From positions 21,526 to 85,525 of the forward strand of contig CAYTBK010000001.1 of assembly GCA_964436005.1 (NCBI GenBank): DNA of 64,000 bases. Reading direction: 5' to 3'. Source of the DNA: an uncultured Acidobacteriota bacterium (lineage in GTDB: Bacteria; Acidobacteriota; JAAYUB01). The translations under genes were made by a program, and so were the position numbers. Shown here piece after piece: positions 16,043 to 37,071 of the stretch; the first letter of the stretch is position 1; each line of letters begins with the position of its first letter. The notes under the pieces were generated by a model. The model saw only the letters and a list, made by a program, of their open reading frames with translations. It was not told the origin of the DNA and did not search any database.

Positions 16043-17349
16043 CAGCCCATCTATTCAAAGAAGGCCGCCTTCCCGACCAGGCCGCCTGGATCCTTTTTTC
16101 CCTCCTTCTCAACACGCTGCTGTTTAATTGCCGGTTTTCCTCAACGGTCAACCTGTACCTGTCCGACATTTTCCTCGTGGGCCTGCTCGGGCTGGCGGCC
16201 CTCCGTTGGAGATCTGTGCTGGAGCCGTCGAACCGGGTTTGGGGTTTTCTGTTCGGCAGCCTGCTCCTCTACTATTCAATCCTGAGCGTCTATGCCTGTT
16301 TCGCCCCGGGATACAAAGGCACCCTGATCGTGGGTCACTTTCGCTACCTTTTCTTCTACCCGCTGGCTTTTTTCGCCGGTCTGAGCTTCACGATCTCCGC
16401 CGCCGCCAGGGAACGATATGTGCTGTTCATCCAAGTACACGTTCTGCTGGCCATGGTTTCCGGAATGATCGGAATATCGTTCCCGGGCTTGGCCCTGACC
16501 AGCGTGTACGAGGGAGGAAGAATCGTCCCGCCGCAATATTTCATGCTGGTAACGCCGGAGACTGCGCTCCTGTGCTGCTTCCTCTTCGCCCATGCGGCCC
16601 TTTCCCTCGCGACGGGGCGCGGGGCCCGGCCCCGGCACGTCTTTTTTCTGGCGGCCAGTCTGGCCGGCATCCTCGGAACCCAGAACCGAAGCGTGCTGAT
16701 CACGTTGCTTCTGACGACCGGCCTCCTTTTCTGGGCCGGGCGCAAGGCGGGACCGGAAACGCGGACACGCCTGAAGGGGCCGCTGCTCGCCATGGCGCTC
16801 CTGCTGGGGTGTTTCAGCCTGGTCGGTTTCCTGTCCCCCCTGAGGGAAAAATTCCAGAAAAGGTTCGACGACACGATCAGTTTTTTTACCAACGAAAAGC
16901 CCTTTTTCCGCACCATCCCGGGAATACGCCTGGCGCGGAGCCTGGAGACAATCAGGGTGTGGAAAGAATCGCCCCTTCTGGGACAACGCTGGGGGGAAAC
17001 GCCACCTGTTTTCCCGATCCGGGACTGGTCCGGCAAGGTGCTTAAAACCCTCGGGGGGACATCGCACAACTACTACCTGGTTCTCCTGTACAGCACTGGC
17101 CTTGTCGGCTTCGCCCTGGTGATGCTCCTGCACTGGATACTGGGCGGGAAAGTCCGGCCAACCTCAGGGCTGGATGGTCCCAACGTCATTTCCTACGCCC
17201 TGTACCTGTTCTATGCAGGCGTCATGGTGCATGCCGTCGCTAACGTCCAATTGTACGGCCACCCGGTGTTCATCCCCGTCTTCTTCTTCCTCCTGGGTGC
17301 AGCCGCCGCTCGCTTCCCGGCCGTTGCGGAGCAGGAGGCGCAACCGTGA
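16039..17349 (+). CDS. O-antigen polymerase/ligase family protein (Wzy-like), copy 1
   Basis: GTG start overlaps the previous stop (GTGA). It is polytopic, with the Wzy_C-like motif GTSHNYYLVLLYSTGLVGFALVML. The GC-rich 5' part of track ORF 15409..17349 is excluded. Confidence 0.65.
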   Translation: MTAHLFKEGRLPDQAAWILFSLLLNTLLFNCRFSSTVNLYLSDIFLVGLLGLAALRWRSVLEPSNRVWGFLFGSLLLYYSILSVYACFAPGYKGTLIVGHFRYLFFYPLAFFAGLSFTISAAARERYVLFIQVHVLLAMVSGMIGISFPGLALTSVYEGGRIVPPQYFMLVTPETALLCCFLFAHAALSLATGRGARPRHVFFLAASLAGILGTQNRSVLITLLLTTGLLFWAGRKAGPETRTRLKGPLLAMALLLGCFSLVGFLSPLREKFQKRFDDTISFFTNEKPFFRTIPGIRLARSLETIRVWKESPLLGQRWGETPPVFPIRDWSGKVLKTLGGTSHNYYLVLLYSTGLVGFALVMLLHWILGGKVRPTSGLDGPNVISYALYLFYAGVMVHAVANVQLYGHPVFIPVFFFLLGAAAARFPAVAEQEAQP

Positions 17350-19629: not shown

Positions 19630-21492
19630 ATGTGCGGAATCTGCGGAATCGTCCATACGACAGGCCAACCGGTGGAAGCAATCGAAGTGCAGGGCATGAT
19701 GGACCGGCTCCGGCACCGCGGGCCTGACGGCCAGGGCCTTTTCCTGGACGGGAACACGGGCCTCGGGCACGTCCGGTTGAGCATCCTGGACCTCACCCCC
19801 AACGGTCGTCAGCCCATGTTCAGCCCTGATGGCCGCCACTGCCTGATCTACAACGGCGAAGTCTACAACGCGCCGGAACTGCGGGAGGAACTTAAGCACC
19901 GACACGACTTCCGAACCCGCACCGACACGGAGGTGGTCCTCCAAACCTTCCTGGCCTGGGGCCCCGATTGCCTCCCGAAGCTCGACGGCATGTTCGCCTT
20001 CGCCCTGTACGACCGGCAGACACGGGACCTTTTCGTCGCCAGGGACCGGTTCGGGATCAAGCCGTTCTTCTATTTCCAAGATGACCGTCTCTTCGTTTTC
20101 GCCTCGGAGGAGCGGGCCCTGCTGCCGTTCCTCCGAGAGCGAAAACCCAATCCGCAGGCGGTGTACGAATACCTGGCCTTCAACCGGACGGGGCAGGGGA
20201 ACGACTCGTTCTTCCAGGGCGTGCGCCGGTTGCCCCACGGTTGCTGCGGCATGGTCCGGGACGGTCGCCTGGCGCAGCGCAAATGGTACCGGCTGGAGGA
20301 TTCCCGCCAGGCCCCCTTCCGGGAACCCCGGGAATTCTACGAGGCCTTCGCCGGATCGGTGCGCCGCCAGTTGCGCAGCGATGTGCCCGTCGGTGTATGC
20401 CTGAGCGGCGGCCTCGACTCCTCCAGCATTGTTTCCGTCATCCTGAAGGAGGAAAACCGACGCGATCTGAGCACGTTCTCCGCGGTCTACGAGAAGGGAG
20501 ACGCCGCGGACGAGAGCGGGTTCATCCAGGAATACGGGAAAGATCTGGAGAACATGTTCTTTACCAATCCCGATGCGGACGGTCTCCTCGCTGACCTTGA
20601 CCGTTTCGTAGCCTGCCACGCCGAACCGGTGGCGACGCTGGGGCCTTACGCCCAGTTCAAAGTCATGGAACTGGCGGGTCGGCACGTCAAAGTCACCCTG
20701 GATGGCCAGGGGGCCGACGAAATGTTGGCAGGTTACCACTACTTCTTCGGCAGCTACTTCAAGGAACTGTTCACGAACTTCCGCTGGGTGCGGTTGGGGC
20801 GGGAAATGGCTGCCTATTTCCGGAAGCACCGCTCCCTCTATGCACTCCGTTACTTCGCCCTTTACCTGGCCCCCCGAAGCACGAAAGACGCCCTGAGCAG
20901 ATTCCACCACAGTCACATCACCCGGGATTTCTACCAGTCCGGAAAAAATATTTCCCGGATCGGGGCGGACCTGTACGCCCCACGCACGCTCAACGAATCG
21001 CTGCGCCAGCATTTCGAACACAAGCTGGAACACCTGCTGAAATGGGAGGACCACAACAGCATGGCACATTCGGTGGAATCCCGCGTCCCCTTCCTGGACC
21101 ACTCTTTGGTGGAACGAACCTTGGCCCTCCCCGCCGGATGGAAGATACATCAGGCCACCACCAAGTACTTTCTGCGTGAAGCCATGAAAGACATCCTCCC
21201 GGAGCGGATACGGACACGGGCGGACAAGATCGGGTTTGCCACCCCGTGGGCCCGCTGGTTCCGCGCACCCGCCTTCCGGGACAGGATTCTGGATGTTCTC
21301 CACTCCCGCACCTTCCGGGAGCGGGGGTACCTCGAACCGGAACGGTGCCTTCGGGACTACCGCCACCATTTGGAAGGGAAAACAGACATCGCCAAGGAGA
21401 TCTGGAAATGGGTGAATCTGGAACTCTGGTTCGCCGCGTTTATCGACGGCCAAGACACCCCGCAATGCCCGACCGGTCCCGCAGGGCCATGA
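19630..21492 (+). CDS. asnB: asparagine synthase (glutamine-hydrolysing) family amidotransferase, WbpG/WbpS-like
   Basis: The start MCGICGIV has the class-II glutamine amidotransferase Cys2. The synthetase domain motif is SGGLDSS. The SD is GAGGAGG. Confidence 0.85.
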   Translation: MCGICGIVHTTGQPVEAIEVQGMMDRLRHRGPDGQGLFLDGNTGLGHVRLSILDLTPNGRQPMFSPDGRHCLIYNGEVYNAPELREELKHRHDFRTRTDTEVVLQTFLAWGPDCLPKLDGMFAFALYDRQTRDLFVARDRFGIKPFFYFQDDRLFVFASEERALLPFLRERKPNPQAVYEYLAFNRTGQGNDSFFQGVRRLPHGCCGMVRDGRLAQRKWYRLEDSRQAPFREPREFYEAFAGSVRRQLRSDVPVGVCLSGGLDSSSIVSVILKEENRRDLSTFSAVYEKGDAADESGFIQEYGKDLENMFFTNPDADGLLADLDRFVACHAEPVATLGPYAQFKVMELAGRHVKVTLDGQGADEMLAGYHYFFGSYFKELFTNFRWVRLGREMAAYFRKHRSLYALRYFALYLAPRSTKDALSRFHHSHITRDFYQSGKNISRIGADLYAPRTLNESLRQHFEHKLEHLLKWEDHNSMAHSVESRVPFLDHSLVERTLALPAGWKIHQATTKYFLREAMKDILPERIRTRADKIGFATPWARWFRAPAFRDRILDVLHSRTFRERGYLEPERCLRDYRHHLEGKTDIAKEIWKWVNLELWFAAFIDGQDTPQCPTGPAGP

Positions 21493-21504
21493 CCCGCCTG
21501 GCCC

Positions 21505-21541
21505 GGAAACCGGAAGCGGGCTGCCATGGCAGGGTGTTTCC
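21505..21541 (+). promoter_or_regulatory. stem-loop (GGAAAC...CTGCCATGGCAG...GTTTCC) abutting the GTG start of the DUF354 gene
   Basis: A 12-bp perfect palindrome sits inside a 6-bp outer stem and ends 1 nt before the start codon. It could occlude the RBS. Confidence 0.25.
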
Positions 21542-22717
21542 GTGAAAAAGAGAATACTGGTCGACATCAACCACCCGGCCCATGTCCACTATTTCCGGAA
21601 CTGCATCCGGCTTCTGCGCGAACAAGGGCACCAGGTGGCCATCGTCTCGCGAGACCGGTACCCGGCTCGGGAACTCCTGGAGGCCTACGGTGAGCCTTTC
21701 GTGGACCGGGGCCGGGGGGGCGGGTCCCTGGCGGGCAAGCTCCTGTACCTGCCCCGGGCGGAGTGGAAGATTTTCTCGACCGCCCTGCGATTCAGGGCAA
21801 ACCTGTTCCTTAGTTTCGGGACCCCATATCCCAACCACGTGGCCTGGCTGCTGCGCAAACCGTCCATCAACTTCCACGACACGGAAAACGCGGGGTTGGC
21901 CCTCGCCTTCACCCGGCCTTTCGCTCGGGCTTTCTGCACCCCGGCTTGCTTCGGCCGGGACTTGGGCCGCAAACACTTCCGGTTCCGGGGATACATGGAG
22001 CTGGCTTACCTGCACCCCAATCAATTTGTCCCCGACCCGACAGCCTGCCAGGACCTCGGCCTCGCACCGGCAGAACCGTATGTGATTCTTCGATTCGTCT
22101 CCTGGCAGGCCACCCACGACATCGGGCACCCAGGCCTGTCCCTGGCCGTCAAGCGCGAGGCCTTGCGGCGACTTTCTCCCTACGCCAGGGTCTTTGTTTC
22201 CTCCGAAAAAGAACTTCCCCCGGACCTGGAACCATACCGGATCCGCATCCGCCCGGAGCGAATGCACCACGTTCTTGCCGGCGCCGCCTTGCTCTACGGC
22301 GAGAGCGCCACCATGGCCTCCGAATGCGCCGTCTTGGGAACACCCGCCATCTACCTGGACAATGACGGCCGCGGCTACACCCGGGAGGAGGAAGAGCGAT
22401 ACGGGTTGGTGTTCAATTTCAAGGAAACGCCGGCGGAGCAAGCCCGGTCTTTGGACAAGGCCGAGGAACTGCTCCGGACCCCGAACCGGCCCGAGGAATG
22501 GCAGCGACGCAGGTCGCGCCTTCTGGCAGACTCAATCGATGTCACCGCCTTCATGACCTGGTTCCTGAACGAATACCCCCGAAGCGCAGAAACGCTTCGC
22601 GCCGATCCCGGGTACGCGGATGCGTTCCGGACCGGCCCTTTCAGCAGCCCGGGCCCGGAGACGTGGCCGACTCCGTTCCGGAGAGCGCAGCCCCCAATTC
22701 CACCGCCACCCGCATGA
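21542..22717 (+). CDS. DUF354 family protein (GT-B/UDP-GlcNAc-2-epimerase-like fold)
   Basis: MKKRILVDINHPAHVHYFRNCIRLL is characteristic of DUF354. The start is GTG. The Pro-rich C-terminal tail overlaps the convergent aminotransferase gene by about 77 nt. Confidence 0.7.
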   Translation: MKKRILVDINHPAHVHYFRNCIRLLREQGHQVAIVSRDRYPARELLEAYGEPFVDRGRGGGSLAGKLLYLPRAEWKIFSTALRFRANLFLSFGTPYPNHVAWLLRKPSINFHDTENAGLALAFTRPFARAFCTPACFGRDLGRKHFRFRGYMELAYLHPNQFVPDPTACQDLGLAPAEPYVILRFVSWQATHDIGHPGLSLAVKREALRRLSPYARVFVSSEKELPPDLEPYRIRIRPERMHHVLAGAALLYGESATMASECAVLGTPAIYLDNDGRGYTREEEERYGLVFNFKETPAEQARSLDKAEELLRTPNRPEEWQRRRSRLLADSIDVTAFMTWFLNEYPRSAETLRADPGYADAFRTGPFSSPGPETWPTPFRRAQPPIPPPPA

Positions 22718-23807
22718 TTTCATCCTCCCGGATGGTTCCGTCCAGGGGTAAGCTGAGCACGCCGTCCGAGAGCGTTGCGGCGACGGGGAAGGCATCGGAA
22801 TCGTAGCCCAGAAAGGCGCAGGCGGGTTGCCGATGGATAGGGACAGGGTAATGGATTCCGCAGCCGATTCCCTGCGACTGCAAGTGCCGCCGTCGGCAGT
22901 CCCGCTCGGTGGCCCGCACAACGAAGAGATGGAAGGCGGAAGACGCCAGAGCGTCCTCCTGCTCGATGACGGCGATGCCCGGCAGAGGCGCCAGCACCCT
23001 CCGGTAGAGTGCCGCCATCTCCTTGCGGTGGGCGTTCCACGCTTCCAGCCAGGGAAGCTTCACCAGCAGGACGGCTGCCTGGATCGTGTCCAGGCGACTG
23101 TTGCCCCCCAGGATCTGATGACGATACTTCTCCGTCCGGCCATGGTCCCGAAGCAGCCGGATCCGTTCCGCCAGGGCGAGGTCAGCGCAAGCGACGGCTC
23201 CCGCATCGCCGAGCGCCCCCAGATTTTTACCGGGGAAAAAGCTGAAGCAGGTGATGTCGGCGAAGTGCACGATGCTCCGCCCCCCTACCGTCGCCCCGTG
23301 GGCCTGGGCCGCGTCGCAGATCAGCGGCAGTCCGTATTCCCGGCAGATCCCGGAAATCTCCGGCAGGTAACGGGGAGAGCCGTACAGGGCCACGTAGATC
23401 ACAGCCTTGACGGCCCGGCACCCGGTACCGGACAGGGCGGCTTTCAGGAGAGCAGGGTCAAGGATGCCGGAACCAGCCTCCACGTCCAGCAGGACAGGCC
23501 GGGCGCCAGCCAGCGCGACAGCCTCGGCGGTGGCCAGGAAAGTCATGTCCGGCAGGATCACCTGATGGCCCCTCCCGATGCCCAGGGCCTTGAGCGCCAG
23601 GGTGAGCGCATCGGTGCCCGAACTCACGCCCACCACTTGGGGAACGTCCAGAAAGGCCCCGAAGGCGCTTTCGAATTCTCCGACCTCCCGGCCGTTGATG
23701 TAGCGGTTGTGGTCGAGGCAGTCCGCCAGTGCACGGTCCAGGGCCGGCCGGAGAGGCTTGTGCATCCTTTCCAGGTTCACCAGGGGAATGGAATCAGCTC
23801 TGTTCAC
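22641..23807 (-). CDS. DegT/DnrJ/EryC1/StrS-family PLP-dependent sugar aminotransferase (WbpE-like)
   Basis: 388 aa with the family fold. The conserved region around GDAGAVA is typical of sugar aminotransferases. Confidence 0.85.
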   Translation of the reverse strand: MNRADSIPLVNLERMHKPLRPALDRALADCLDHNRYINGREVGEFESAFGAFLDVPQVVGVSSGTDALTLALKALGIGRGHQVILPDMTFLATAEAVALAGARPVLLDVEAGSGILDPALLKAALSGTGCRAVKAVIYVALYGSPRYLPEISGICREYGLPLICDAAQAHGATVGGRSIVHFADITCFSFFPGKNLGALGDAGAVACADLALAERIRLLRDHGRTEKYRHQILGGNSRLDTIQAAVLLVKLPWLEAWNAHRKEMAALYRRVLAPLPGIAVIEQEDALASSAFHLFVVRATERDCRRRHLQSQGIGCGIHYPVPIHRQPACAFLGYDSDAFPVAATLSDGVLSLPLDGTIREDEIMRVAVELGAALSGTESATSPGPGC

Positions 23808-23837
23808 GATATCTATCTCGTTTAGAAATTTATATTT

Positions 23838-24371
23838 TCAAGAGAAATCCGGACAACCACCGCGAATGGGCGCAGCGGGCACATCGGCCGGTTTCGGAAG
23901 GAGACGCAGGAGACGAGCGGGGTTGCCGGCCCAAACCCCCGGTTGCGCGATGTCCCTGGTCACTACTGACCCGGCCCCGATGACCACCCCGTCGCAAACT
24001 GTGACCGGGAGCAATGTCGCGTTGGATCCGATGGAGACCCTGTTGCCGATACGGGTTGCCCGCCAGAGGGCGCGATCGCCTCCGGCCGGCCCCCCGCGGG
24101 AGAAGAGATCGTTGACGAACATCACCCCGTGCGCGATGAAGCAATCTTCCCCCACCTGTACACCTTCGCAAAGAAAGCTGTGGCTTTGTATCCGGGTCCG
24201 CGCACCGACGACAACGTTCCGCTGGATCTCCACGAAAGGCCCGACGAAGGCCCCGTCTCCTAGTGTACATTCGTAGAGATTGACAGGTTCCACCAGGGTG
24301 ACCCCTTCCCCGAACATGACGCCGCGTATGCCGCTGGAGATGATTCTAGGGTTTCCGCCGTTCTTGTCCAT
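23838..24371 (-). CDS. hexapeptide-repeat sugar N-acetyltransferase (WbpD/PglD-like)
   Basis: LbH repeats are present (VGEDCFIAHGVMF..., IGNRVSIGSNATLLP). The start is MDKNGGNPR. Confidence 0.8.
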   Translation of the reverse strand: MDKNGGNPRIISSGIRGVMFGEGVTLVEPVNLYECTLGDGAFVGPFVEIQRNVVVGARTRIQSHSFLCEGVQVGEDCFIAHGVMFVNDLFSRGGPAGGDRALWRATRIGNRVSIGSNATLLPVTVCDGVVIGAGSVVTRDIAQPGVWAGNPARLLRLLPKPADVPAAPIRGGCPDFS

Positions 24372-24376
24372 GTTCG

Positions 24377-25444
24377 TCAACCTCTCACGCCCAGACGGCA
24401 CAGCCTGGGTCGGAATGCCAGCGCGATCTCCTGCCCCGTTTCGATGGATTCGTAGATCGCGTTGATGAGGGCCAGGGATTTTCGGCCCTCCAGGCCGTCC
24501 ACCAGGGCGGGAGCGTTATTGCGCAGGCTCTCCACTACATTCCGGAGGAAGCTGAGATGGCCGAACCCATAAACGTCGGGCGGATTCTGATTGTAGCAGG
24601 TCCTGATTTCCTCGTCTTCAGGAAGAGCGGGGAAGAAGGACCAGGTCCGGATCTCGTTGACGGCGAAACCGGATATTTCCACCGTGCCGTTTTCGCCCAG
24701 GATGGAGATGGATCCTTCCAGGTCCGCGGGCCGGGTGGCCGTGGTGGCCTCCACGACGCCGAGGGCGCCACTGGCGAAAGAGATGACGGCCACACCGGTG
24801 TCCTCAGTCTCGATGTTGGCCAGCGCGGTGCGGCTCCGCGCGAAAACGGACACCGGTTCGCCCAGCATCCACTCCAGCAGGTCGATGTGGTGGCTGGCCT
24901 GATTTGTGAAAACGCCGCCGTCCATGGCCCAGGTCCCCCGCCAGGCATCGTGGTCGTAATATTCCTGCCGCCGGCACCACCGCACGCGGACGGTCCCCAT
25001 GACGATCTTTCCGAACCGTCCCCGAACCAGGGCCTCCTTCAGCTTGACCACAGGCAGATTGTAGCGGTTCTGCTTGACTACGAACAGTTTGACCCCGGCA
25101 CGGTCGCAGGCTTCGATGAGGCGGTCGGCATCCTCCAGTCGCAGGGCCAGGGGCTTTTCCACCACGACATGCCTTCCCAGCGACGCCACATCCATGGCGA
25201 TGGCAGCGTGGCTCCCGCTCTCGGTGAGGATGTTCACCGCCTCGACTTCCGGGTGCCGACCGAGCATCTCCCGATAGTCGGTGAACCATGGCACGAGATG
25301 CTTCTCGCCGAAAGCCCGGGCGCGGTCCGGCATCAGGTCGCACACGGCCGCGAGCCGGGCGCCTGGCACCGCACCGCTCAGGAGCGCGGCGTGTTTGGAT
25401 GCAATACGTCCGCAACCGACGATAGCAAAAGGGATGTCGTTCAT
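24377..25444 (-). CDS. Gfo/Idh/MocA-family NAD-dependent sugar oxidoreductase (WbpB-like)
   Basis: N-terminal Rossmann motif AIVGCGRIASKHA and the EKPLA motif are present. Confidence 0.85.
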   Translation of the reverse strand: MNDIPFAIVGCGRIASKHAALLSGAVPGARLAAVCDLMPDRARAFGEKHLVPWFTDYREMLGRHPEVEAVNILTESGSHAAIAMDVASLGRHVVVEKPLALRLEDADRLIEACDRAGVKLFVVKQNRYNLPVVKLKEALVRGRFGKIVMGTVRVRWCRRQEYYDHDAWRGTWAMDGGVFTNQASHHIDLLEWMLGEPVSVFARSRTALANIETEDTGVAVISFASGALGVVEATTATRPADLEGSISILGENGTVEISGFAVNEIRTWSFFPALPEDEEIRTCYNQNPPDVYGFGHLSFLRNVVESLRNNAPALVDGLEGRKSLALINAIYESIETGQEIALAFRPRLCRLGVRG

Positions 25445-25523: not shown

Positions 25524-27527
25524 CTACTCGCTGCGGATCCGGTTGAAGAGAATGTTGTACAAACCCCAAAATAGAACCCGAATATCCGTCAGGATGGGAT
25601 GCGCTTTCTTTTCTTGAAGATAACGGATTTCCGAATCGATGTATTCCTCTACCCTTTGCGTGCGGTACGCCACATAAGGGGGGATGCATCCAGGCTTTCG
25701 CTTTTGTCTCTCTGCCCGCAACCACTCCGGATAATTCGCCAGGAAGCGGTTGCTGAGAGGGCGCACCCCCACCAGGGCCATGTCCCCTTTCAGCAGGTTC
25801 ACCACTTGAGGGATCTCGTCAAGCCAGAACCGGCGTAAGAACCGCCCCCAGGCGGTCACCCGGATATCCTCCTTGACCTTGCCCAATTCACCATATCCGA
25901 ACAAGGAGGTCACGTAACCTTGCAGGTATTCCGAGTATGGGTGCATGGTGCGGATTTTGTAGACATAAATGAGTTTCCCGCCCTTGCCCGTGCGCTGCAT
26001 CTTGAAGAGCAGGCCCGAGGCGGGTTGTCGCCCCAATTCGGGCTCCCCGGTACGGCGGGCGCAGAAATGTACCGCACTGTCGTGGAATTCGATCCCGACG
26101 ATGGAAAACCCGCAATAACTGAGCCGGCCGAAGCCCTCGGCCAGGGAGAAGACCCGGGTTCTGCCCGGCGGGAACAATTGCCGTACTCTCCGGAGTAAGA
26201 TTATTTTCGGCAACAGACGGAACCAAATGAAATCCAAGAAGTAAAGGAAATTGGCCACTGCTCGCGGATAATGCTGGACATAGTGGAGGCGGCGCAGTTC
26301 GCAAGGCTGGAAATTGCCCAGGAAAACTCCTCCGGGAACAAGCTTCCGATGGACTTCCCGCAAGTACCGGTTGAGATCCCGCTGGGTATTGAGGCGGTGC
26401 CGGTTCATGAAGAACTCCATGGTCCCGTCAGGCATTACCTCGACATTGTAGGGATTGCTGGAGTCAAGAACCTCGGCCCGTACGATATCTACGGATTCGA
26501 TGTCCACCGTTCGTTGCACAAAGGCCATGATCTCGGGACAATCCTTCAGGTAAATATGTTTCATCTTTTCGGCAAACTGGGGGGAGGCTGAATCACGTTT
26601 CTCGAAGCGGACGGGGCCGGCGAAGGCTGCCATATGCTGGGTGACAAGCACATCTACCTTCGCCGCTTCCGCCAGCTCCGGTACGCGGAAAATAGAGCCG
26701 AGCTTCTCGCCTGGTTTCCCGAAAACGTAATAAAGGGTGACGAAGGCGAGTTCCAACACAGCCACGACGAACAAGGGCAGAAGATATCTCCTGGGTGAGG
26801 AACCGGTCAGCTTGAAGATATACAAAACTGCAACGCTGCAGCAAAGCACAACGGCCAAACTCTTCACATGGGGATATATCATTTTCAGGCAACTGGATTG
26901 CCATTCCAGCCGGAAGTGATGGATCAACAAGCCAGCAAGAAGCCATATGAAATAAACATAAAAAAATGGGATGGCTGAGGGGTGCTCCTCGCCGTTCAGT
27001 CCGAATTGGTTGATGTAAGCCAAAGTGTAAAGAGCAGCGAGCGATGACAACTCAAGGCCAAAAAAAGCAAAAGAGAGAAGCCGTTCCCTCCGGCTGACGC
27101 CTTCACTGAAAAAAGGGAGGTAATCCCCAGAAAGAAAAAGGATTTCCAACAGCAGATACAGAGAGAGTGCCCCATAGATGATGAAACGTGAAAGATCGAA
27201 GAGATCCGCCACATACAGAAACAGAGAGATCAGGCCCGCCATGTACAGACAACTGGTGACAAAGGGCGCCAGTTTGTGGCTCTGGCGGCGTTCTTGATCC
27301 AAGCGACGGAATTTGTCGCATGCCAGACTGACACTGGCCCAAGCGACAATGTAGACCAACATCAACTGTAAATAAGTGAGATCGATGGCTAATTTCTTTT
27401 TCTTGAGGCAATGAGTGGCCAGGAAAGCAACGAGGAGAAGGCAGAGGTCCACCAGATACCTTCGGGCAACCGTTCTGGGTCGGCCTGATGATTGAATGGG
27501 TGCCCACGATGGTCGGAGACCCGGCAT
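25524..27527 (-). CDS. initiating polyprenyl-phosphate sugar phosphotransferase (bacterial sugar transferase family) with atypical N-terminal architecture
   Basis: The C-terminal catalytic domain reads GKGGKLIYVYKIRTM...WLDEIPQVVNLLKGDMALVGVRP (KFRTM-type motif). It is preceded by about 8 predicted TM helices and a ~190-aa soluble region of unknown function. A good SD (AAGGGAGAAAG) is present. Confidence 0.75.
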   Translation of the reverse strand: MPGLRPSWAPIQSSGRPRTVARRYLVDLCLLLVAFLATHCLKKKKLAIDLTYLQLMLVYIVAWASVSLACDKFRRLDQERRQSHKLAPFVTSCLYMAGLISLFLYVADLFDLSRFIIYGALSLYLLLEILFLSGDYLPFFSEGVSRRERLLSFAFFGLELSSLAALYTLAYINQFGLNGEEHPSAIPFFYVYFIWLLAGLLIHHFRLEWQSSCLKMIYPHVKSLAVVLCCSVAVLYIFKLTGSSPRRYLLPLFVVAVLELAFVTLYYVFGKPGEKLGSIFRVPELAEAAKVDVLVTQHMAAFAGPVRFEKRDSASPQFAEKMKHIYLKDCPEIMAFVQRTVDIESVDIVRAEVLDSSNPYNVEVMPDGTMEFFMNRHRLNTQRDLNRYLREVHRKLVPGGVFLGNFQPCELRRLHYVQHYPRAVANFLYFLDFIWFRLLPKIILLRRVRQLFPPGRTRVFSLAEGFGRLSYCGFSIVGIEFHDSAVHFCARRTGEPELGRQPASGLLFKMQRTGKGGKLIYVYKIRTMHPYSEYLQGYVTSLFGYGELGKVKEDIRVTAWGRFLRRFWLDEIPQVVNLLKGDMALVGVRPLSNRFLANYPEWLRAERQKRKPGCIPPYVAYRTQRVEEYIDSEIRYLQEKKAHPILTDIRVLFWGLYNILFNRIRSE

Positions 27528-27578
27528 GCTATACTTTCTCCCTTTTCATTGACAGATTGGATGCGGAAATCTGCTCAC

Positions 27579-28907
27579 TCAGTTGCTGGCCTGCGCAGCG
27601 GAACAAGCCTGGCCTTCGTCCCGGGAAGCGTCTTTTCCCGCCCAGACTGCATGGGAAACGGCAGCACCCAAAAGCATAAAGAATATCGGCACGGTGACGG
27701 GGTTCGAATCCATCAGGGTATTCGCACCATTGAATACCAGCAGACCGATCAGAAAAATGAAAAAACTGAAAACTGTGTCCTTGCCCATTGCCAACTTTCC
27801 ACGCGGCCAAGAGCACTGCAGGATTTTCCCAAAAAATACCATCATGACAGCAAACCCTATGATTCCTGTCTGATAAAGAATGGTCACGTAATAGTTATGC
27901 GATGTTCCATAGACGGAACGCACATAGTGCCCCTTCAGGTCGTATATCTTGAACTCCTTCATCTGCCTACCCCACCCACAACCAAGGATGGGGTATTTCG
28001 ACCACTCCCGCAGGGTAGCCACGGTGCGTCCGACACGTATTCCCAAATTGGTGTTAAAGAACGATCTTCTTCCGGATACTGTGTCTTTCGTCTCAGCGAT
28101 CCTCTTCTTGTAAAGTTGGTTCACCGAAGGTAAGAACATCGCAAGGGAAATGGCAGTCACCAGCAGTAGGGTCAGACCCGCACCGTAAAGAACCCGTTTG
28201 CGAACGGCCTTTTCCGCCCGGATACCATATCCACAGACCAGAAGGATCATGATACCGAAAACGACAATGGTGCTCCTATGCTGGCTTCCGATAATTCCCG
28301 CCAGGGAAGCGGCGAGAAATGGGGACGCGCTGAGGAAGCGGCGGCGGCGTACCGCCACGGAGACGAACTCGAAGACGAAGACCAGGCAGCAGAGAACCGC
28401 GGTGCCATGATTCACGAGCATGAAGTAGGAGGCGGGAATGCTGACCCCCCGGAAATAGACGGTGGCAGGATTGGTTCCGGCCAAAGCGAGGCAGAACAGG
28501 CCGTAAAGCACAGAGATCAGGACATGGAACCGCACGGCCCAAACCAGCCATTTCACATCCTCTCGTTCGATGACACACACCAACCCAGCCAAAAAGAGGA
28601 GTGGGTAGATGAAAAGGTTGCGGAAACGGTCCAGGATAGCCAACAGGCTACTTTCTTGGATATAACGAGCGCATAGCATCAGGAAAGTGTAATAGACCAG
28701 AAGGACGGCAAAGACGAGCAACCAGGGCCTGGCCCGGTCCCTAGTTTCCTTCTGTCGCAAGCAGACCGCGGCAAAGCCCAGGAGGGCCAGGACAAAAAAA
28801 TCCGAAAGATAGAGTTTGATTCCGACTTCAAACAGGCAGTTGCTCAGAAGGGTATTGAGCAAAAGAAAAAAAACAAGGAAGAAGCCTGCCCGCTGCATTG
28901 GCCGCAT
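27579..28907 (-). CDS. O-antigen polymerase/ligase family protein (Wzy-like), copy 2
   Basis: It is a paralogue of the 16039..17349 product (LLNTLLSNCLF, GTSHNYYVTILYQTGIIGFAVMMV) and is polytopic. Confidence 0.65.
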   Translation of the reverse strand: MRPMQRAGFFLVFFLLLNTLLSNCLFEVGIKLYLSDFFVLALLGFAAVCLRQKETRDRARPWLLVFAVLLVYYTFLMLCARYIQESSLLAILDRFRNLFIYPLLFLAGLVCVIEREDVKWLVWAVRFHVLISVLYGLFCLALAGTNPATVYFRGVSIPASYFMLVNHGTAVLCCLVFVFEFVSVAVRRRRFLSASPFLAASLAGIIGSQHRSTIVVFGIMILLVCGYGIRAEKAVRKRVLYGAGLTLLLVTAISLAMFLPSVNQLYKKRIAETKDTVSGRRSFFNTNLGIRVGRTVATLREWSKYPILGCGWGRQMKEFKIYDLKGHYVRSVYGTSHNYYVTILYQTGIIGFAVMMVFFGKILQCSWPRGKLAMGKDTVFSFFIFLIGLLVFNGANTLMDSNPVTVPIFFMLLGAAVSHAVWAGKDASRDEGQACSAAQASN

Positions 28908-29303
28908 GTTTCCCGCCGTTAAAATGACTGGTCGCTTCCGGAGCTTTCACCGACCCGCCGGCGCCGCTCACTTCAGATAATCGGAATGCTACACGAAACC
29001 GATACCATGTTCAAGATCAGTATTGAGAATGGGTAAGGTTCATTTTCCATGAGAGGCCTGGCTGGCGAGCCAATGGGCTTTCACCGGGCTTCCCAGCTCA
29101 ACCCCACACGCCCCGAAACTCCAACCTGAATTGTCCCCGCTTGCACGTCCCCCCGCCACCGAGACGCCCGCAACGCGCAATTCCCTTGCGTTTTCAGCCA
29201 GGTCTTCGTAGTCTTCCAATGCTGTCGAATGAACGCTCCGAATGTTCTTTTCTCAAGAAAACCTGTGTTTCCGACCCTCTATTTCCGCCCGAAGGTAGAA
29301 GTG

Positions 29304-31781
29304 ATGACCCGTTGCCCGGCCCGATTTTTCCGACGAAAACGTTTCCCTCGGCCCGATACCGCGAAATCCGCCCTGTCCCATGTCCTCCGGCCATCGCAGC
29401 GTTGGTCGGCGCGGATATTGATAGGCCCGCTTTACTTCTGGCTGTTATTGCTGTCCAGCGACTCGCCCCTGGCGCAAAGCCTGTTCAACGTGAAGGCGCA
29501 AAAGCAGTTGTTCCCCCCGGAGAACCAGGCGGTGACCGTGACGCCACCCGCATTTTCCTGGGTTCCCGGGAGCGGGGTCGGGGAGTACACGCTGCAACTC
29601 TCTCCCTCGCCGGATTTCCTTCCGAAGCGGACGGAAACCTGGACTGGGATCAGACGGCCGGCTTTTGTCCCCAGCCATCCACTGGCCTCGGGAAAATGGT
29701 ACTGGAGGGTCGGCGTTCAAGGAGAAAACCGCTTCGGCCCAACCCACTCTTTCATTGTTCCCAAGAACACAAAGCCGTTCCCTTTCCCCGATTGGGAAAA
29801 AGTCATCCGCAGGACTCCCCGCCGACACCCGCGGCTGTTTTTTCCCGGGGCTCGGCTGGCTCAAGCCAAGCGGTGGGCGAAAACTGACTGGAAAACCGAC
29901 CTGGACAAGCTGGAATCCCGCTGTCTCAAGGAAATGGGGAGCCCCCTCCCCCCCGAACCCGGGCCCCCGCCCCCACCAATAGCGTTAGGGCCATGGTCTG
30001 TCCAGGTGATCCAAACGACACGCCCCCCCCTGGACCTCATGGAGAACTGCGCGCTCCTCTACCTGCTTCGCGGGAACCAGAGGCTGGGGCTTGAAGCTCG
30101 GCGCATACTGCTGCACTTCTTCTCGTGGGACCCGGACGGACCCACGAGCCAATCGTCTTTCGACGAGCCCGGCATGTGGATGATGATGCGCGGGGTACGG
30201 ACCTATGACTGGACCTTCGACCTGTTCTCGCCAACAGAAAGGGACCGGATCGAAAAAGTGATGAAAAGGAGGGCTCGCCAGTTTCTGGAACGCTTGCAGG
30301 CCCTCCCTTTCGAAACCAATCCATTCAGCAGCCATGCCGGACGGCTGCCTGGATTCCTGGGCGAATGCGCCCTGGCCTTCGCCGGCGAATGGCCTGAAGC
30401 GCGCCCCTGGTTGGAGTACGCAACACTCCTGTTTTTCACATCGTATCCGGCCTGGGGCGGGGACGAGGGGGGCTGGCAGGAAGGCCCCCACTACTGGAAC
30501 GCTTATATGTCCTTTGCGTTGCACTACATTGTCGCCCTGCGCAATGCGACCGGCGTCAACCTGGCCAGAAAACCGTTCTTTGCCCAAACGCCCTTCTATG
30601 CGTTGTACACGGCCCCCCCCTACCGCCAGTTCAGCCCTTTCGGCGACACTTCGGAACGAACGTCCTTCGGCAGCGTAATGTACGCATTTTCCTCTCTTCT
30701 CCGAAACCCACACTTACGTTGGTACGCTGAACACGAGCATACGGCTTTCGGGTCGGACCTGTTGAGTCTGGCCACCTGGAATCCAGGTTTAACCGCTCGC
30801 ACACCGATAGAGTTGCCACCGGCCCGGTTGTTTTCGGACGTGGGTCTCGCTTCGATCCACACGGCTCTGGGCGATGGAGAGCAAGACATCCACTTCCTGT
30901 TGCGCAGCAGCCCCTACGGCAGCGTAAGCCACGGACACGCGGATCAGAACGCCTTTGCCCTGGAAGCCTTCGGCCGCGGCCTGGCGATTGCCACCGGATA
31001 TTACCCATGGTATGGGTCCCCGCACCACGACCGATGGACCCGCTCCACCCGGGCCGTCAACAGTCTGCTGGTCGACGGGGAAGGGCAAGCAGCCAGGAGT
31101 TGGAAAGCCCAGGGCCGGATCACGGCCTTCGCGTCGACGGACGGCTACGATTATGTGGCCGGCGAGGCGGCCTCGGCGTATGCAGGGAAGCTGAAGCGTT
31201 TCCGACGGCAAGTGGTTCACCTCCGTCCTGGTGTGTTCGTCCTCCTGGACGAGGTCCAGGCCAAGGAGCCCGCCCGTTTCCAGTGGCTGTTGCATGCCTG
31301 CCACGAGATGCAGGTGCGGGAAGGCGAAAGGAGGATTCTCGTCCGCAACGACCCGGCAGCGATGGAAGTGATCCTTCTGGAGCCTGGAGAACTGACGTTC
31401 ACGCAGACCAACCGCTATATGCCGGAACCGGAATTGCCTCCTGGCAGCTGGGAAAACACCTGGCACCTTCAGGCGGAAACCGTCCCCCGCTCTTCGACAG
31501 GGCGGTTCCTGGCGGTGCTGCTCGTCCACCGCGTAGGGGAAGAACAGAATATGCCCCAGGTTTCGCCCCTGATTGCGACCGGCGGCAGTGGCGCCATCCT
31601 GCGTTATCCATCCGGGAAAACGGACCTGGTTCTATTTCGAACAGGACCGGAAGTTCGCGGAATCCAGCATGAGGGCATCCAGACTTCGGCGGAGGTTTAC
31701 GCGGAGGGAAGGGATGAAACGGGCGCCCTCTGTCGAAAGTTCACCTTCCCGCAAAACGAAGGACGCGATGAAACCCGGTAA
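29304..31781 (+). CDS. heparinase II/III-family polysaccharide lyase-like protein, exported
   Basis: The motif HGHADQNAFALEAFG and the family architecture are present. The signal-like segment is ARILIGPLYFWLLLLSSDSPLAQS. I chose the ATG at 29304 (GAAGG SD) rather than the track start 29229. Confidence 0.75.
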   Translation: MTRCPARFFRRKRFPRPDTAKSALSHVLRPSQRWSARILIGPLYFWLLLLSSDSPLAQSLFNVKAQKQLFPPENQAVTVTPPAFSWVPGSGVGEYTLQLSPSPDFLPKRTETWTGIRRPAFVPSHPLASGKWYWRVGVQGENRFGPTHSFIVPKNTKPFPFPDWEKVIRRTPRRHPRLFFPGARLAQAKRWAKTDWKTDLDKLESRCLKEMGSPLPPEPGPPPPPIALGPWSVQVIQTTRPPLDLMENCALLYLLRGNQRLGLEARRILLHFFSWDPDGPTSQSSFDEPGMWMMMRGVRTYDWTFDLFSPTERDRIEKVMKRRARQFLERLQALPFETNPFSSHAGRLPGFLGECALAFAGEWPEARPWLEYATLLFFTSYPAWGGDEGGWQEGPHYWNAYMSFALHYIVALRNATGVNLARKPFFAQTPFYALYTAPPYRQFSPFGDTSERTSFGSVMYAFSSLLRNPHLRWYAEHEHTAFGSDLLSLATWNPGLTARTPIELPPARLFSDVGLASIHTALGDGEQDIHFLLRSSPYGSVSHGHADQNAFALEAFGRGLAIATGYYPWYGSPHHDRWTRSTRAVNSLLVDGEGQAARSWKAQGRITAFASTDGYDYVAGEAASAYAGKLKRFRRQVVHLRPGVFVLLDEVQAKEPARFQWLLHACHEMQVREGERRILVRNDPAAMEVILLEPGELTFTQTNRYMPEPELPPGSWENTWHLQAETVPRSSTGRFLAVLLVHRVGEEQNMPQVSPLIATGGSGAILRYPSGKTDLVLFRTGPEVRGIQHEGIQTSAEVYAEGRDETGALCRKFTFPQNEGRDETR

Positions 31782-32529
31782 AAATACCGTCTGGAACCGA
31801 ATCAGGCGCAAGTTGTCACGGTGGATCGCTTGCGATCCCCGCGTGGAGCAGTTTTTCACCCTGCCGTTTCGGTTCTTCGATCAACGCGGCTATATTGTCA
31901 ACGAAAGAATCATCGAGATGCCGTTCATCTTCTCGGAATTGGGCGCCAGGCCAGGGAAACTCAAGATTCTGGATGTCGGTTGCACGAACAGTTGGTTGTC
32001 CATCTCCCTGGCTTCTTTGGGTCACGAGGTCTACGGAGTCGATATGCGCTCATATTCGTTTTCTCACCCGAATCTGGTGTTCTTTCAAGGGGATGTGCTG
32101 AATCTGAAAGAAACCGGCTTCGACGCCGTTGTCGCCCTGTCGACCCTGGAACATGTGGGCCTGGGCGCCTATGGTGAAGAAAAAGGAAACGCGACGCTGG
32201 AACTTGTGCTGGACAAACTCCACCATGCGCTTCTGCCTTCCGGAAGATTGCTGATCACCGTCCCGGCTGGGCAGCCGGAGTCGGACTCATTCCAGAGGAC
32301 CTTCGCCCCGGAGGAGATCGAGGGGATCGTTAGCGCTCACAACTTTCATCTCCTGACCGGACGGTACTTCCGCAGGCACGAGAATGTCCGGTGGACCCCC
32401 TGCACTGCTGACGAAATCCTCTGCATGTCCAACCGCAGGAAGCCAGGGCAGACGGAAAGCATCGGGTCCAACGGGGTCGCCTGTTTAATGTTCCAGAAAA
32501 AGGCCTCCCACCCGGACGTCCAGACCTGA
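31768..32529 (+). CDS. class I SAM-dependent methyltransferase
   Basis: Motif I is ILDVGCTNSW and motif II/III is VVALSTLEHVG...LLPSGRLLI. The start MKPGKNTVW overlaps the end of the lyase gene. Confidence 0.75.
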   Translation: MKPGKNTVWNRIRRKLSRWIACDPRVEQFFTLPFRFFDQRGYIVNERIIEMPFIFSELGARPGKLKILDVGCTNSWLSISLASLGHEVYGVDMRSYSFSHPNLVFFQGDVLNLKETGFDAVVALSTLEHVGLGAYGEEKGNATLELVLDKLHHALLPSGRLLITVPAGQPESDSFQRTFAPEEIEGIVSAHNFHLLTGRYFRRHENVRWTPCTADEILCMSNRRKPGQTESIGSNGVACLMFQKKASHPDVQT

Positions 32530-33242: not shown

Positions 33243-34225
33243 CGGATCAACCCCTTGTCGCGCATGGTCTTCAGCATGCTGAGCACGACGTAGGAACACC
33301 GCGGGACCTCTTCCAGGAGGGTCCGCAAGGTTGCCCCCTCCCCGATCTTCATCCAGATCATGAGCGCGATGTCCAGGGTCTTTTCGTCCGGCCATTTCAG
33401 GGTGTTCCGGCACGGCTGGAACACGTAGGAGGGGTCGGCGATCTCCTTGAGGATGACCTTGCACTCGTCCTTCAGCCGCATGGCCTCCAGGAGCAGGTTC
33501 ATGGGCGACCGCTCGATGGGGCAGGTGCAGGCCTCCTCGTTCACGTCCTCCCCGCGGAAGGTGAAGACCCCGGAAATGTCGTCGTGGAAGATCTGGTAGA
33601 AGGCGTCTTCCCCTTCCAGCTTGCCCATGCGCGCCGTCAGGACGCGCCCCTCGGAGAAGACCACCTCCGACTGCGGCCCTTCGGGCATCTCGATGAGCAT
33701 GATGCCGCTCTGGCCCGTGTTGATGAGGGTCTGCATAACCGTGGCCAGGTCGAAGAAGTGCAGGCTGCCCTGGAGTTCCTTGCGGTGCTCCTCCACGACG
33801 ATCTGCCGGTCGGCGTGCTCGAGCCGGAACGCCAGGATCTCGCAGAGCCGACGCAGGAACAGCGGGTTTTCCTGCAGCAGCTCCTCGTACAGCTCGGCCG
33901 GGATCTCCAGCACCTCGGCGGCCTGCGGGACGCGCACCGACGCCGAGCGCGGCCGCCCCGTGATCAGGGCCATCTCGCCGAAACACTCCCCCTTGGACAG
34001 GTAAGCCACGATGGACGGCTGCCGGATCTCCTTCTTGTGTTTCTGGATCTCCACCACCCCGGTGCGGATGATGTAGAACTGGAAGGAAGTCTCCCCGTCG
34101 TGGAAGATGAACTCGCCCGGGCCGTAGCTCTTCAGCAGGCCCTCGTCGTAGACCCGCTGGATGAGTGAGTCCGGCATCCCCTTGAACAGTTCCGACTCCT
34201 TGAGAAAGCGGGTTTCTTCGGGCAT
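33239..34225 (-). CDS. cyclic-nucleotide-binding (CAP/Crp-type) domain protein with C-terminal DUF4388-like domain
   Basis: The N-terminal cNMP domain reads FGEMALITGRPRSASVRV. The C-terminal LHFFDLATVMQTLINTGQSGIMLIEM resembles DUF4388. Confidence 0.75.
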   Translation of the reverse strand: MPEETRFLKESELFKGMPDSLIQRVYDEGLLKSYGPGEFIFHDGETSFQFYIIRTGVVEIQKHKKEIRQPSIVAYLSKGECFGEMALITGRPRSASVRVPQAAEVLEIPAELYEELLQENPLFLRRLCEILAFRLEHADRQIVVEEHRKELQGSLHFFDLATVMQTLINTGQSGIMLIEMPEGPQSEVVFSEGRVLTARMGKLEGEDAFYQIFHDDISGVFTFRGEDVNEEACTCPIERSPMNLLLEAMRLKDECKVILKEIADPSYVFQPCRNTLKWPDEKTLDIALMIWMKIGEGATLRTLLEEVPRCSYVVLSMLKTMRDKGLIR

Positions 34226-34229
34226 TTTC

Positions 34230-35972
34230 CTACTCCATGCGAAGGTGCAGTTCCTTGAGCTGGCGTCCGGACACCTCGGAAGGGGCCCCCGAAAGCAGGC
34301 ACATGGCCGAGGTGGTCTTCGGGAAGGCGATAACGTCGCGGATCGAGGTTTCGCCCGCCAGCAGCATCACCAGCCTGTCGAGCCCCAGGGCGATGCCGCC
34401 GTGCGGGGGCGCGCCGTAGCGCAGGGCGTCGAGGAAGAAGCCGAACTTTTCCCGCGCTTCCTCCGGGGTGAAGCCCAGGGCGCCGAAGACCTTCTCCTGC
34501 AGGTCGGTGCGGTGGATCCGGACGGACCCGCCGCCGAGCTCCAGGCCGTTGAGGATCACGTCGTAAGCCAGGGCCTTGGCGGCGCCCGGATCGTCGAAGT
34601 CGGGGTCGGCCGGGGCGGTGAAGGGGTGGTGGCAGGCCACGTAACGCCCCTCCTCCTCGCTGAACTCGAACATGGGGAAGTCCGTCACCCACAGGAAGTC
34701 GAAGCGCGCGGGGTCCATGAGGCCCTCGCGGCGCCCCAGGTGCAGGCGCAGGCCGCCCAGCGCGGCCAGGACGGTCTTCTCCGGCCCGGCCACCATCAGC
34801 AGGGCGTCGCCCACGGCCCCGTTCACCGCGCCCACCAGGGCGCGCTTTTCGTCGTCGGTGACGGCGGCGGGCAGCGAGGAGCGCAGGGCCCCCTCCTCCG
34901 ACTTCACCCAGGCCAGGCCGCCGGCGCCGAGGTGCTTGACCACGTCCTGGAAGCCGTCCAGGTCCTTCCGGCTGTACTTGGCGCCGCCCGGGACCAGGAT
35001 GCCCCGGATCGTCCCGCCCTCCTCCACGATCTTCCGGAACACCCCGAAGGCCGACTCGCGGAAGTGCCCGGACACGTCCTGCAGCTCCAGGCCGAAGCGG
35101 GTGTCGGGCCGGTCGGACCCGAAACGCGACATGGCCTCGGCGTACGGCAGGCGCGGGAACGGGACGGGGATCTCCTTCCCGATCAGCCGGCACAGCCGCA
35201 CCAGCAGGCCTTCGATCAGCGAGTAGATGTCCTCCGGAGCGATGAAGCTCATCTCGATGTCGATCTGGGTGAACTCCGGCTGCCGGTCGGCCCGCAAATC
35301 CTCGTCCCGGAAGCAGCGGGCGACCTGGTAGTACCGGTCCATGCCCGAGACCATGAGCATCTGCTTGAAGAGCTGGGGGCTCTGGGGCAACGCATAGAAG
35401 CGGCCCTTGTGGATGCGGCTGGGCACCAGGTAGTCGCGGGCGCCTTCCGGCGTGGAGTGGGTGAGGAAGGGCGTCTCGATTTCCAGGAAGGCGTTTTCGT
35501 CCAGGTAGCGGCGCGTTTCGCCGGTCACCCGGTGGCGCAGCACGAGATTCCGCACCATGGGTGCGCGCCGGAGGTCCAGGTAGCGGTACTTCATGCGCAG
35601 TTCCTCCGAGGCCCGGACCTCGTCCTGGATCTCGAAGGGGGGCAGTTCGGAGGGGCTCAGGATCTCCACGGCCTTCCCCACCACCTCGACGCGGCCGGTG
35701 GCCAGCTCCGGGTTGACGTTCTCCGCCTCGCGCTCCCGGACGACGCCGGCCGCGCGGACCACGTACTCGCTCTTGATTTCCTCCGCCGAGGCGAACAGGC
35801 CCGGATCGTCCTCCTTGCAGAACGTGACCTGGGTCAGGCCGTGCCGGTCCCGGATCTGCAGGAACAGCAGCCCGCCCAGGTTGCGCACGGCGTGGGCCCA
35901 GCCGGTCAGGGTCACCGACCGCCCCACGTCGGCCACCGTCAATTCTCCGCAGTGATGGGTTCTCATGCTCAT
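34230..35972 (-). CDS. aspS: aspartate--tRNA ligase
   Basis: 580 aa starting [12 protein letters not shown]. Class II aaRS motifs are present ([18 protein letters not shown]; GGSVRIHR; GLDRLVMLL). The 5' extension of track ORF 34230..36821 is rejected. Confidence 0.9.
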
Positions 35973-36127
35973 GAAGTCCTCGCGCTTGCAGGTTGGGTCT
36001 GGAGGCCTCCCCCGGCGCCGGACCGGCCGAAGGCCGGGCCCCGCCCGCGGAATGCGTCCGAAAGCGGCATTGTACCACAACTGGACGGCGCATTCCGTAC
36101 ACGCTGGATTCCTTGGCCGCCCGGGAG

Positions 36128-36133
36128 TATAAT
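36128..36133 (+). promoter_or_regulatory. perfect TATAAT -10 hexamer 32 nt upstream of the 36165 gene
   Basis: Read directly as gggagTATAATccg. No clear -35 is present. Confidence 0.3.
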
Positions 36134-36164
36134 CCGTCCAAACTTCATTTTTTCTGGAGGAACC

Positions 36165-36659
36165 ATGAGACATCTGAGAACCGTTCTTCTGGCCGCCGTC
36201 CTGGCCATGCTGGGCGCCCAACTGCTGGCCGGCGACCAACCCCTGCCCAACCCCACCGCCACCCAGCCGTCCTATCCGCAGAAACTGGAATGGGACCTGA
36301 AGATCGCCCCCGACACCCTCTTCTACACCCTCTGCACGGCGCAGCGCGTCACGGACAAGAACGCCGTTTCCTGGACCGTCCCCACCCAGGGCTTCCGGGA
36401 CTTCCGGGTGGTGGTCTTCACCGCCGGCGCCGAACGGACGTCCAAGGTGGTCGCCACGCAGTTGAAAGTCACCTGCTCCGTCAAGAACGGCGAGAAGAAG
36501 TTCGACTACTTCAAGCGCGACGTGGCCATCGACACGAACTCGCCGAGAACCGACGGGGAAGCCATGCTGGTGCCCGTCTACGGGCAGGAGACCACCCTCG
36601 AGATCGAGCCCCGCAACATGAACACCGACCTGTTCGTCACCGTGTACCTGCTGAAGTAG
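36165..36659 (+). CDS. secreted hypothetical protein (signal peptide [23 protein letters not shown])
   Basis: 164 aa with a GGAGG Shine-Dalgarno. It is the C-terminal part of track ORF 34161..36659. Confidence 0.65.
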
Positions 36660-36679
36660 ACGGTTTCCGGAAATCCCCG

Positions 36680-36716
36680 GCGCCGGGCGGGGCAGCCCCC
36701 CTCCCGGCGCTTTTCC
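36680..36716 (+). terminator. GC-rich hairpin followed by CTTTTCC; putative intrinsic terminator
   Basis: GCGCCGGGCGGGG cagcc CCCCTCCCGGCGC, then TTTTCC. Confidence 0.5.
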
Positions 36717-37071
36717 TTCCTGCGTCGCTTCCCCGTTTCCGAGGCCGCCGCTAGGCGAGAGGCGGCGTACCGCGGCCCGTTGGGCGCATCCCCGTGTGCC
36801 GCGGGATAATTGCCGGCGCAACCGAGCATCGGCCCGGCAGGGCCGACGGAAAGTAGCCCGGGCGCCAGTCCCCGATTCTCTATCACCTCACCGGCGGGCC
36901 TCCTGCCGGCTACTGGGTAGGATTAACCACGAAACCACGAAGCGGCGCCGTCGGCGCCGGATCCCTGAGCCCGGGCCGCAGGCCCGGGGCGAAAGCGCCC
37001 GGAATCGCCCAGGCGGCCTGCCGGGCCGCGACCGGCCCGACCCGGGCGGAGAAACGGTCCTGGCCATGGAA

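Follow-up and report, generated by a model that had tools for sequence, protein, structure and literature searches.

How does a monotopic phosphoglycosyl transferase (monoPGT) reach its membrane lipid when the hydrophobic helix that anchors the canonical catalytic core is missing? The question is raised by a complete open reading frame (ORF) encoding a 667-aa protein in a 64,000-nucleotide stretch of DNA from an uncultured Acidobacteriota bacterium (contig CAYTBK010000001.1), referred to here as the window. Monotopic phosphoglycosyl transferases (PGTs), which are pursued as antibacterial targets, control entry into the synthesis of O-antigens, capsules and protein glycans. An earlier reading made from the letters alone (the sequence-only reading) had described the product as an initiating PGT in which about eight transmembrane (TM) helices and an unrecognised soluble region, perhaps a fused accessory function, precede a PglC/WbaP-type catalytic domain; the present analysis supports that interpretation in part. 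The 667-aa protein is the 8-TM form of a sizeable PGT subfamily that is unnamed and uncharacterised. Taken as a whole, the evidence makes it probable that in these proteins a methyltransferase-fold domain lacking a site for S-adenosylmethionine (SAM) serves as a scaffold, that an amphipathic insertion replaces the re-entrant membrane helix (RMH), and that a duplicated TM bundle is an optional addition.

The mechanism and membrane topology of monoPGTs have been defined by the re-entrant helix of PglC and WbaP (PMC10942596, PMC11626204), and a 2024 survey called the RMH characteristic of the superfamily (PMC11626204). WbaP is a dimer built from a 4-TM bundle, a regulatory domain of unknown function (DUF; PF13727) and an RMH-anchored core; through its DUF the enzyme binds uridine monophosphate (UMP), is inhibited and dimerises (PMC10942596). 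PglC consists solely of an RMH-anchored core.

The C-terminal core of the 667-aa protein is a bona fide monotopic-PGT catalytic domain. Bac_transf (Pfam PF02397) matches residues 505-659 with 91.5 bits against a cutoff of 27 (E 5.9e-26), YKIRTM is present at residues 523-528 and DEIPQ...GVRP at 570-590, and the core fold superposes on solved PglC/WbaP structures. The sequence-only reading had assigned the last ~200 aa to a PglC/WbaP catalytic domain; the identity of the domain holds, but the match is shorter, at ~163 aa. Fold, KxRTM motif, DE dyad and RP motif are all shared with PglC, the small PGT of Campylobacter concisus (PDB 8E37/8G1N). Across 113 family sequences K524, M528, D570, E571 and P573 are invariant, and R526, T527, R589, P590 and further core residues are invariant or near-invariant. 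Given this conservation of the dyad and of the residues around it, the enzyme is probably catalytically active. Judging from the PglC/WbaP family, it would transfer sugar-1-phosphate from a UDP-sugar to undecaprenyl phosphate via Asp570-Glu571, and would act as the initiating polyprenyl-phosphate PGT of a Wzx/Wzy-type polysaccharide locus. Within the family core the canonical '(R/S)PG(I/L/M)TxLWQ' motif is replaced by 'KPG(L/C)IPPY(Y/V)A'. The WbaP, WcaJ and EPS_sugtrans models of NCBIfam match the catalytic part only, and scores fall far below the curated cutoffs (TIGR03025, 116.9 versus 295.55; TIGR03023, 85.4 versus 410.75; TIGR03022, 72.2 versus 403).

The conserved core is entered late. 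The Bac_transf match in the 667-aa ORF spans profile positions 34-177 of 179; in the eight complete family members tested the match begins between positions 30 and 37, in a canonical control at position 1. Because the match begins at profile position 34, the part of the PGT domain that forms the re-entrant helix is missing, which the sequence-only reading had not noted. No RMH with a helix-breaking (Ser-)Pro was found directly N-terminal of the core, and when the canonical RMH and the hairpin that follows it were aligned with the family by hhalign, residues 498-530 alone aligned and the RMH had no counterpart. Canonical monoPGTs carry a very hydrophobic helix-break-helix directly before the first β-hairpin (for example 'LIKRMIALVLAVLGVIVLSPVFLLVAFLIKF' in P0006); in the 667-aa protein this position is taken by strand β7 of the methyltransferase-like domain and a polar loop ('HFCARRTGEPELGRQPASG'). 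In PglC the N-terminal re-entrant helix is broken by Ser-Pro and reaches a best 19-residue hydropathy of 2.95, whereas here a ~190-aa methyltransferase-like domain containing an amphipathic helix-Pro-Lys-helix precedes the core, and there is no RMH.

The region in front of the core is the part that the sequence-only reading had not recognised. A soluble region is indeed present, spanning residues ~283 to 503, but at about 220 aa it is longer than the ~190 aa originally proposed. An AlphaFold2 (AF2) model of the whole protein, built on the 113-sequence family alignment, has a mean predicted local distance difference test score (pLDDT) of 88.7 and a predicted TM-score (pTM) of 0.85; modelled alone, the middle domain reaches a pLDDT of 91.1. 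In these models the domain has a class I methyltransferase Rossmann-like fold, but DSSP assigns only five strands (β1, 351-354; β4, 370-378; β5, 396-406; β6, 474-482; β7, 485-492), and β1 is separated from β4 by just ~15 residues (355-369, DSSNPYNVEVMPDGT). The absence of the G-x-G motif, noticed from the letters, was confirmed: the middle region contains no GxGxG, and none of the 113 aligned members has motif I or the β2-αB-β3 half in which the SAM adenosine is held; with β2, the acidic residue at its end, which binds the SAM ribose, is lost as well. Typical class I SAM methyltransferases (Methyltransf_11/23/25-like; TleD 5GM1, YcgJ 1XXL, BioC 8X8I, GPP C-MT 4F84) differ from the family in precisely these elements, and, among the complete sequences listed, the middle domain occurs only fused to a PGT core. 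With motif I and β2/β3 lost in the model, the domain very probably cannot bind SAM, and we interpret it as the remnant of a methyltransferase without a SAM site that would serve as a non-catalytic scaffold.

Sequence likeness to methyltransferases is limited to β4-αD-β5 and is sub-threshold. Methyltransf_11, the only Pfam model to give a signal in the soluble region, matches residues 365-403 with E 0.02 in the full protein and E 0.0018 in the isolated domain (15.9-19.3 bits against a cutoff of 21.2; profile positions 56-94 only), and PDB sequence searches with middle-domain profiles returned nothing significant (E 0.056-0.2). Besides the catalytic core, the middle region is the best conserved part of the full-length homologue alignment. 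Its near-invariant residues (N375, N380, N386, G400, S461, E464, G467, R468, C472, G473, F474 and K492) show that the domain is under strong constraint. Local duplication of a methyltransferase gene elsewhere in the window (31573-32529) was considered as its origin and rejected (hhalign probability 0.1%).

A candidate substitute for the RMH lies within the middle domain. Two consecutive helices, H422-441 and H443-449 by DSSP, form the only hydrophobic element left besides the TM helices. The consensus of this insertion is Y..DF.W.RV.PKLP..K.IYF, with F433, R437, P440 and K441 near-invariant. Over the family the mean best 19-residue hydropathy is 1.0 and the hydrophobic moment 1.3-1.5, and the first helix mostly carries 3-5 charges; the corresponding values for four canonical RMHs are 2.6-3.0 and ~0.5. 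The insertion is thus amphipathic rather than hydrophobic across the family. We propose that the helix-Pro-Lys-helix would dock the enzyme on the cytoplasmic surface of the membrane beside the core and would assume the two tasks of the RMH, anchoring and access to the lipid, since family members without TM helices (0-TM), which have no other hydrophobic element, must still reach the membrane lipid.

Eight TM helices had been predicted, and eight were found: Kyte-Doolittle analysis gives eight hydrophobic segments within residues 19-270 (and one more at 427-445), and the AF2 model contains helices at 18-43, 50-70, 82-106, 114-136, 153-175, 186-203, 213-237 and 246-270. Profile-profile comparison by hhalign matches residues 15-145 to residues 146-280 with 99.6% probability (E 5.6e-25), and the two copies match the N-terminal 4-TM bundle of canonical large PGTs with 93% (copy 1, E 2.7e-7) and 79% (copy 2). 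The match between the two halves indicates that the eight helices are a tandem duplication of a WbaP-type 4-TM bundle; family members with four TM helices align to copy 2. From the even number of TM helices and the basic N-terminus, the middle domain and core are predicted to stay on the cytoplasmic side. Relative to large PGTs of the WbaP/WcaJ type (S. enterica WbaP, PDB 8T53), the 667-aa protein has the same core and type of 4-TM bundle, but the bundle is doubled in tandem, a methyltransferase-fold domain stands in place of the CoA_binding_3 DUF, and the hydrophobic RMH directly before the core is missing. Because the unit of middle domain plus core also occurs with four or with no TM helices, the TM helices would be an optional add-on to it.

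The size of the family became apparent only from the middle domain. A word-indexed search of 5.8 billion clusters with the whole protein found 3 other full-length clusters (670-677 aa, 36-39% identity), and the extreme rarity that this implied was overturned by an exhaustive HMMER search with a middle-region profile, which matched 651 cluster representatives at E<=1e-3; of these, 460 reach E<=1e-10 and 137 reach E<=1e-30. Architectures were counted in 150 listed representatives at 50% identity, the best of the 651: 67 have ~8 TM helices, 28 have ~4, 11 have few or none, 3 are intermediate and 41 are incomplete. The middle domain directly precedes the PGT core in every complete sequence among them except P0163, which runs on into unrelated sequence and looks chimeric; the short listed proteins are contig-truncated fragments that run into PGT motifs. 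In a second search with a deeper profile, which gave 203 proteins, 107 of the 119 best newly fetched sequences are ~344 aa long and have no TM helix, a feature shared with PglC. Named members of this 0-TM form come from metagenome-assembled genomes (MAGs) of Bacteroidales, Bacteroidota, Balneolales and Saprospiraceae. Members with a named source are mostly Bacteroidota, the others being a Clostridia MAG and the genome of the window; a scan of a genome collection with middle-domain patterns found a single locus, which was not that of the window. Where names exist, they are 'sugar transferase', a generic glycosyltransferase name or 'hypothetical protein'. A literature search, which did not extend to the 2021 monoPGT architecture survey, found no paper joining PGTs to a methyltransferase-like domain.

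Some members from metagenomes carry additional N-terminal regions. P0191 has a response-regulator receiver (PF00072) upstream of the methyltransferase-like domain, P0147 has a further region of ~130 aa in front of it, and P0099 has a weak PilZ match upstream (E 0.007). The N-terminal signalling domains of some members echo the activation of the PGT EpsZ by a single-domain response regulator (PMC12802240).

Several other accounts of the architecture were weighed. If the middle domain were an active SAM-dependent methyltransferase modifying the sugar or the lipid-linked product, the protein would be a bifunctional PGT (Bi-PGT), and Bi-PGTs likewise have a further globular domain with an enzyme fold joined to the PGT core. 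The partner domains of Bi-PGTs are functional according to the summary in PMC10942596, whereas here the modelled cofactor site appears to be lost and the partner would replace part of the membrane-association apparatus of the PGT itself. The absence of motif I and of the adenosine-binding half from 113 of 113 members, together with the partial, sub-threshold Methyltransf_11 match and the insignificant PDB profile hits, makes methyltransferase activity improbable. The middle region could also be a diverged CoA_binding_3 DUF in an otherwise ordinary large PGT with extra TM helices: it likewise sits between a WbaP-type 4-TM bundle and the core, and both domains are Rossmann-like. PF13727 is unmatched in the 667-aa protein, however, while the control P0006 matches it at 2.5e-18, and the WbaP DUF is not among the matches for the middle domain. 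With no CoA_binding_3 match, the alternative that the sequence-only reading had itself set, a plain WbaP-type cytoplasmic domain, was not borne out, and we regard even a diverged version as very improbable. The unusual architecture, and a GC content of 0.53 against 0.63 for the neighbours, might raise the suspicion that the ORF was called wrongly or is chimeric, for instance that a frameshift has joined a membrane protein to a methyltransferase fragment and a PGT. Such an artefact is effectively refuted by conservation, as independent metagenomes contain the full-length architecture at 36-39% identity, it recurs in 67 of the 150 listed representatives and in the Clostridia MAG, and the AF2 model is confident throughout (pTM 0.85).

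The methyltransferase-like domain may instead be chiefly a ligand-sensing regulatory or dimerisation module, with helix 422-452 acting as a pocket lid and membrane contact made through the TM helices and the amphipathic helices of the core. Helical insertions between β5 and αE are common in class I methyltransferases. The conserved polar cluster N375/N380/N386/E464/R468/K492 would fit a pocket, the upstream receiver of P0191 or the weak PilZ match of P0099 hints at regulatory wiring, and the WbaP DUF combines UMP binding, inhibition and dimerisation (PMC10942596). Two observations speak against a lid: the ~344-aa 0-TM members, which make up 107 of the 119 best hits sequenced, have neither an RMH nor another hydrophobic element, and the helix combines strong amphipathicity with a conserved basic/Pro motif of the kind usual in interfacial anchors. 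We consider it rather unlikely that sensing is the chief role. Sensor and anchor are not mutually exclusive, and the rest of the methyltransferase-like domain may, like the WbaP DUF, serve in regulation or oligomerisation.

The proposal of a SAM-site-less scaffold with a substitute anchor also has to accommodate several points that weigh against it. N375, N380 and N386 lie at the position of the methyltransferase active-site loop and could have a ligand-binding or catalytic role. Where helix 422-452 sits with respect to the active site and to the plane of the membrane is something we infer. In the 667-aa protein this helix has a Kyte-Doolittle value of 1.67 over 19 residues and is more hydrophobic than the family mean; its second helix reads RQLFPP at residues 449-454 (window 26166-26179) where the family has the strongly conserved YFxLTK, and pLDDT falls there to 77-86. 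A protein with eight TM helices may need no extra anchor. One member locus (L007) has no polysaccharide-biosynthesis neighbours, and the donor sugar discussed below is suggested, weakly, by gene neighbourhood only. The subfamily may, moreover, already have been noted in the architecture survey of O'Toole et al. 2021 (PNAS).

Table 1. Features of the 667-aa PGT and of its locus, in window coordinates
Feature	Position	Strand	Basis or remark
Complete ORF, 667 aa: PGT of the methyltransferase-like-domain subfamily	25524-27527	-	ATG start
First 4-TM module, WbaP-type 4-TM-helix bundle copy 1, residues 18-136	27120-27476	-	AF2 helices, hhalign
Second 4-TM module, copy 2, residues 153-270	26718-27071	-	AF2 helices, hhalign; 4-TM members align here
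Truncated class I methyltransferase-fold domain, residues 308-495	26043-26606	-	five strands, no motif I, no β2/β3
Amphipathic helix-break-helix insertion between β5 and αE, residues 422-452	26172-26264	-	DSSP, hydropathy/hydrophobic moment, conservation
MonoPGT catalytic core, residues 505-667	25527-26015	-	Bac_transf profile positions 34-177
Asp570-Glu571 catalytic dyad (DEIPQ)	25815-25820	-	invariant in 113 family members
Wzy_C / O-antigen-ligase-like polymerase	27579-28907	-	upstream, 51 bp from PGT start
Gfo/Idh/MocA oxidoreductase (WbpB-like)	24377-25444	-	downstream, 79 bp after PGT stop
DegT/DnrJ/EryC1 sugar aminotransferase	22641-23807	-	next after Gfo/Idh/MocA gene
AsnB-like amidotransferase, DUF354, Gfo/Idh/MocA, DegT gene stretch	19630-25444		
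Second Wzy_C / O-antigen-ligase-type gene	15409-17349	+	
Heparinase II/III-like gene (DUF4962 + Hepar_II_III_C)	29229-31781		adjoins Wzy_C gene 27579-28907

The genes around the PGT (Table 1), which also include GT4 glycosyltransferases and a Wzx flippase, identify the window locus as a Wzx/Wzy-type polysaccharide locus, and an LpxD gene (7971-9047) points to a Gram-negative host. Eight member loci were compared (the window, L001, L003, L004, L006, L007, L008 and L009). Six of the seven informative ones (L001, L003, L004, L006, L008 and L009) are polysaccharide loci. AsnB-like amidotransferases were found in six of the eight, DUF354 in five and Gfo/Idh/MocA oxidoreductases in four, and the window and the Bacteroidota locus L004 share the gene order PGT-GFO-DegT. 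AsnB-like, DUF354 and Gfo/Idh/MocA genes, with or without DegT, recur beside family PGTs across distant taxa (the window, L001, L003, L004, L006 and L008). This points to a sugar-nucleotide pathway conserved with the PGT subfamily. We take the recurring neighbours to resemble WbpB/WbpE-type pathways for 3-amino or 2,3-diacetamido (uronic) sugars, and because of these conserved neighbours the donor might be a UDP-2-acetamido-3-amino or 2,3-diacetamido (uronic) sugar.

GC content is 0.53 and third-position GC content (GC3) ~0.64 in the PGT gene and the Wzy_C-like gene beside it (25524-28907); the whole window has a GC content of 0.63 and the neighbouring genes a GC3 of 0.79-0.89. By these values the pair looks horizontally acquired from a donor of lower GC. 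No rRNA, tRNA or Rfam match was found within the window. The longest ORF with aspartyl-tRNA synthetase domains (34230-36821, minus strand; 863 aa, TTG start) has its Pfam domains beginning only at residue ~303, and its true start is probably internal; a large opposite-strand ORF that overlaps it (34161-36659) has no family match.

The catalytic function of the subfamily is conventional; its accessory and anchoring solution is undescribed, with the insertion as the presumed anchor. A wider reading, which we offer tentatively and hold to be possible rather than probable, is that a widespread monoPGT clade without RMH reaches its lipid via the helix-Pro-Lys-helix, and that the methyltransferase-like domain may bind polyprenyl phosphate or a regulatory ligand. 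If so, the 0-TM members would sit on the membrane as peripheral enzymes instead of entering it by a re-entrant helix, and the 8-TM members would reproduce within one chain the pair of 4-TM bundles brought together by dimerisation in WbaP. The forms with 0, 4 and 8 TM helices provide a natural series for probing the accessory TM bundles of large PGTs, and the middle domain would illustrate cleanly how a membrane enzyme can take on a pseudo-enzyme domain as a structural component. Present annotations conceal this architecture. A clade of hundreds of cluster representatives would show a second way of coupling the monoPGT core to the membrane, and probably of regulating it.

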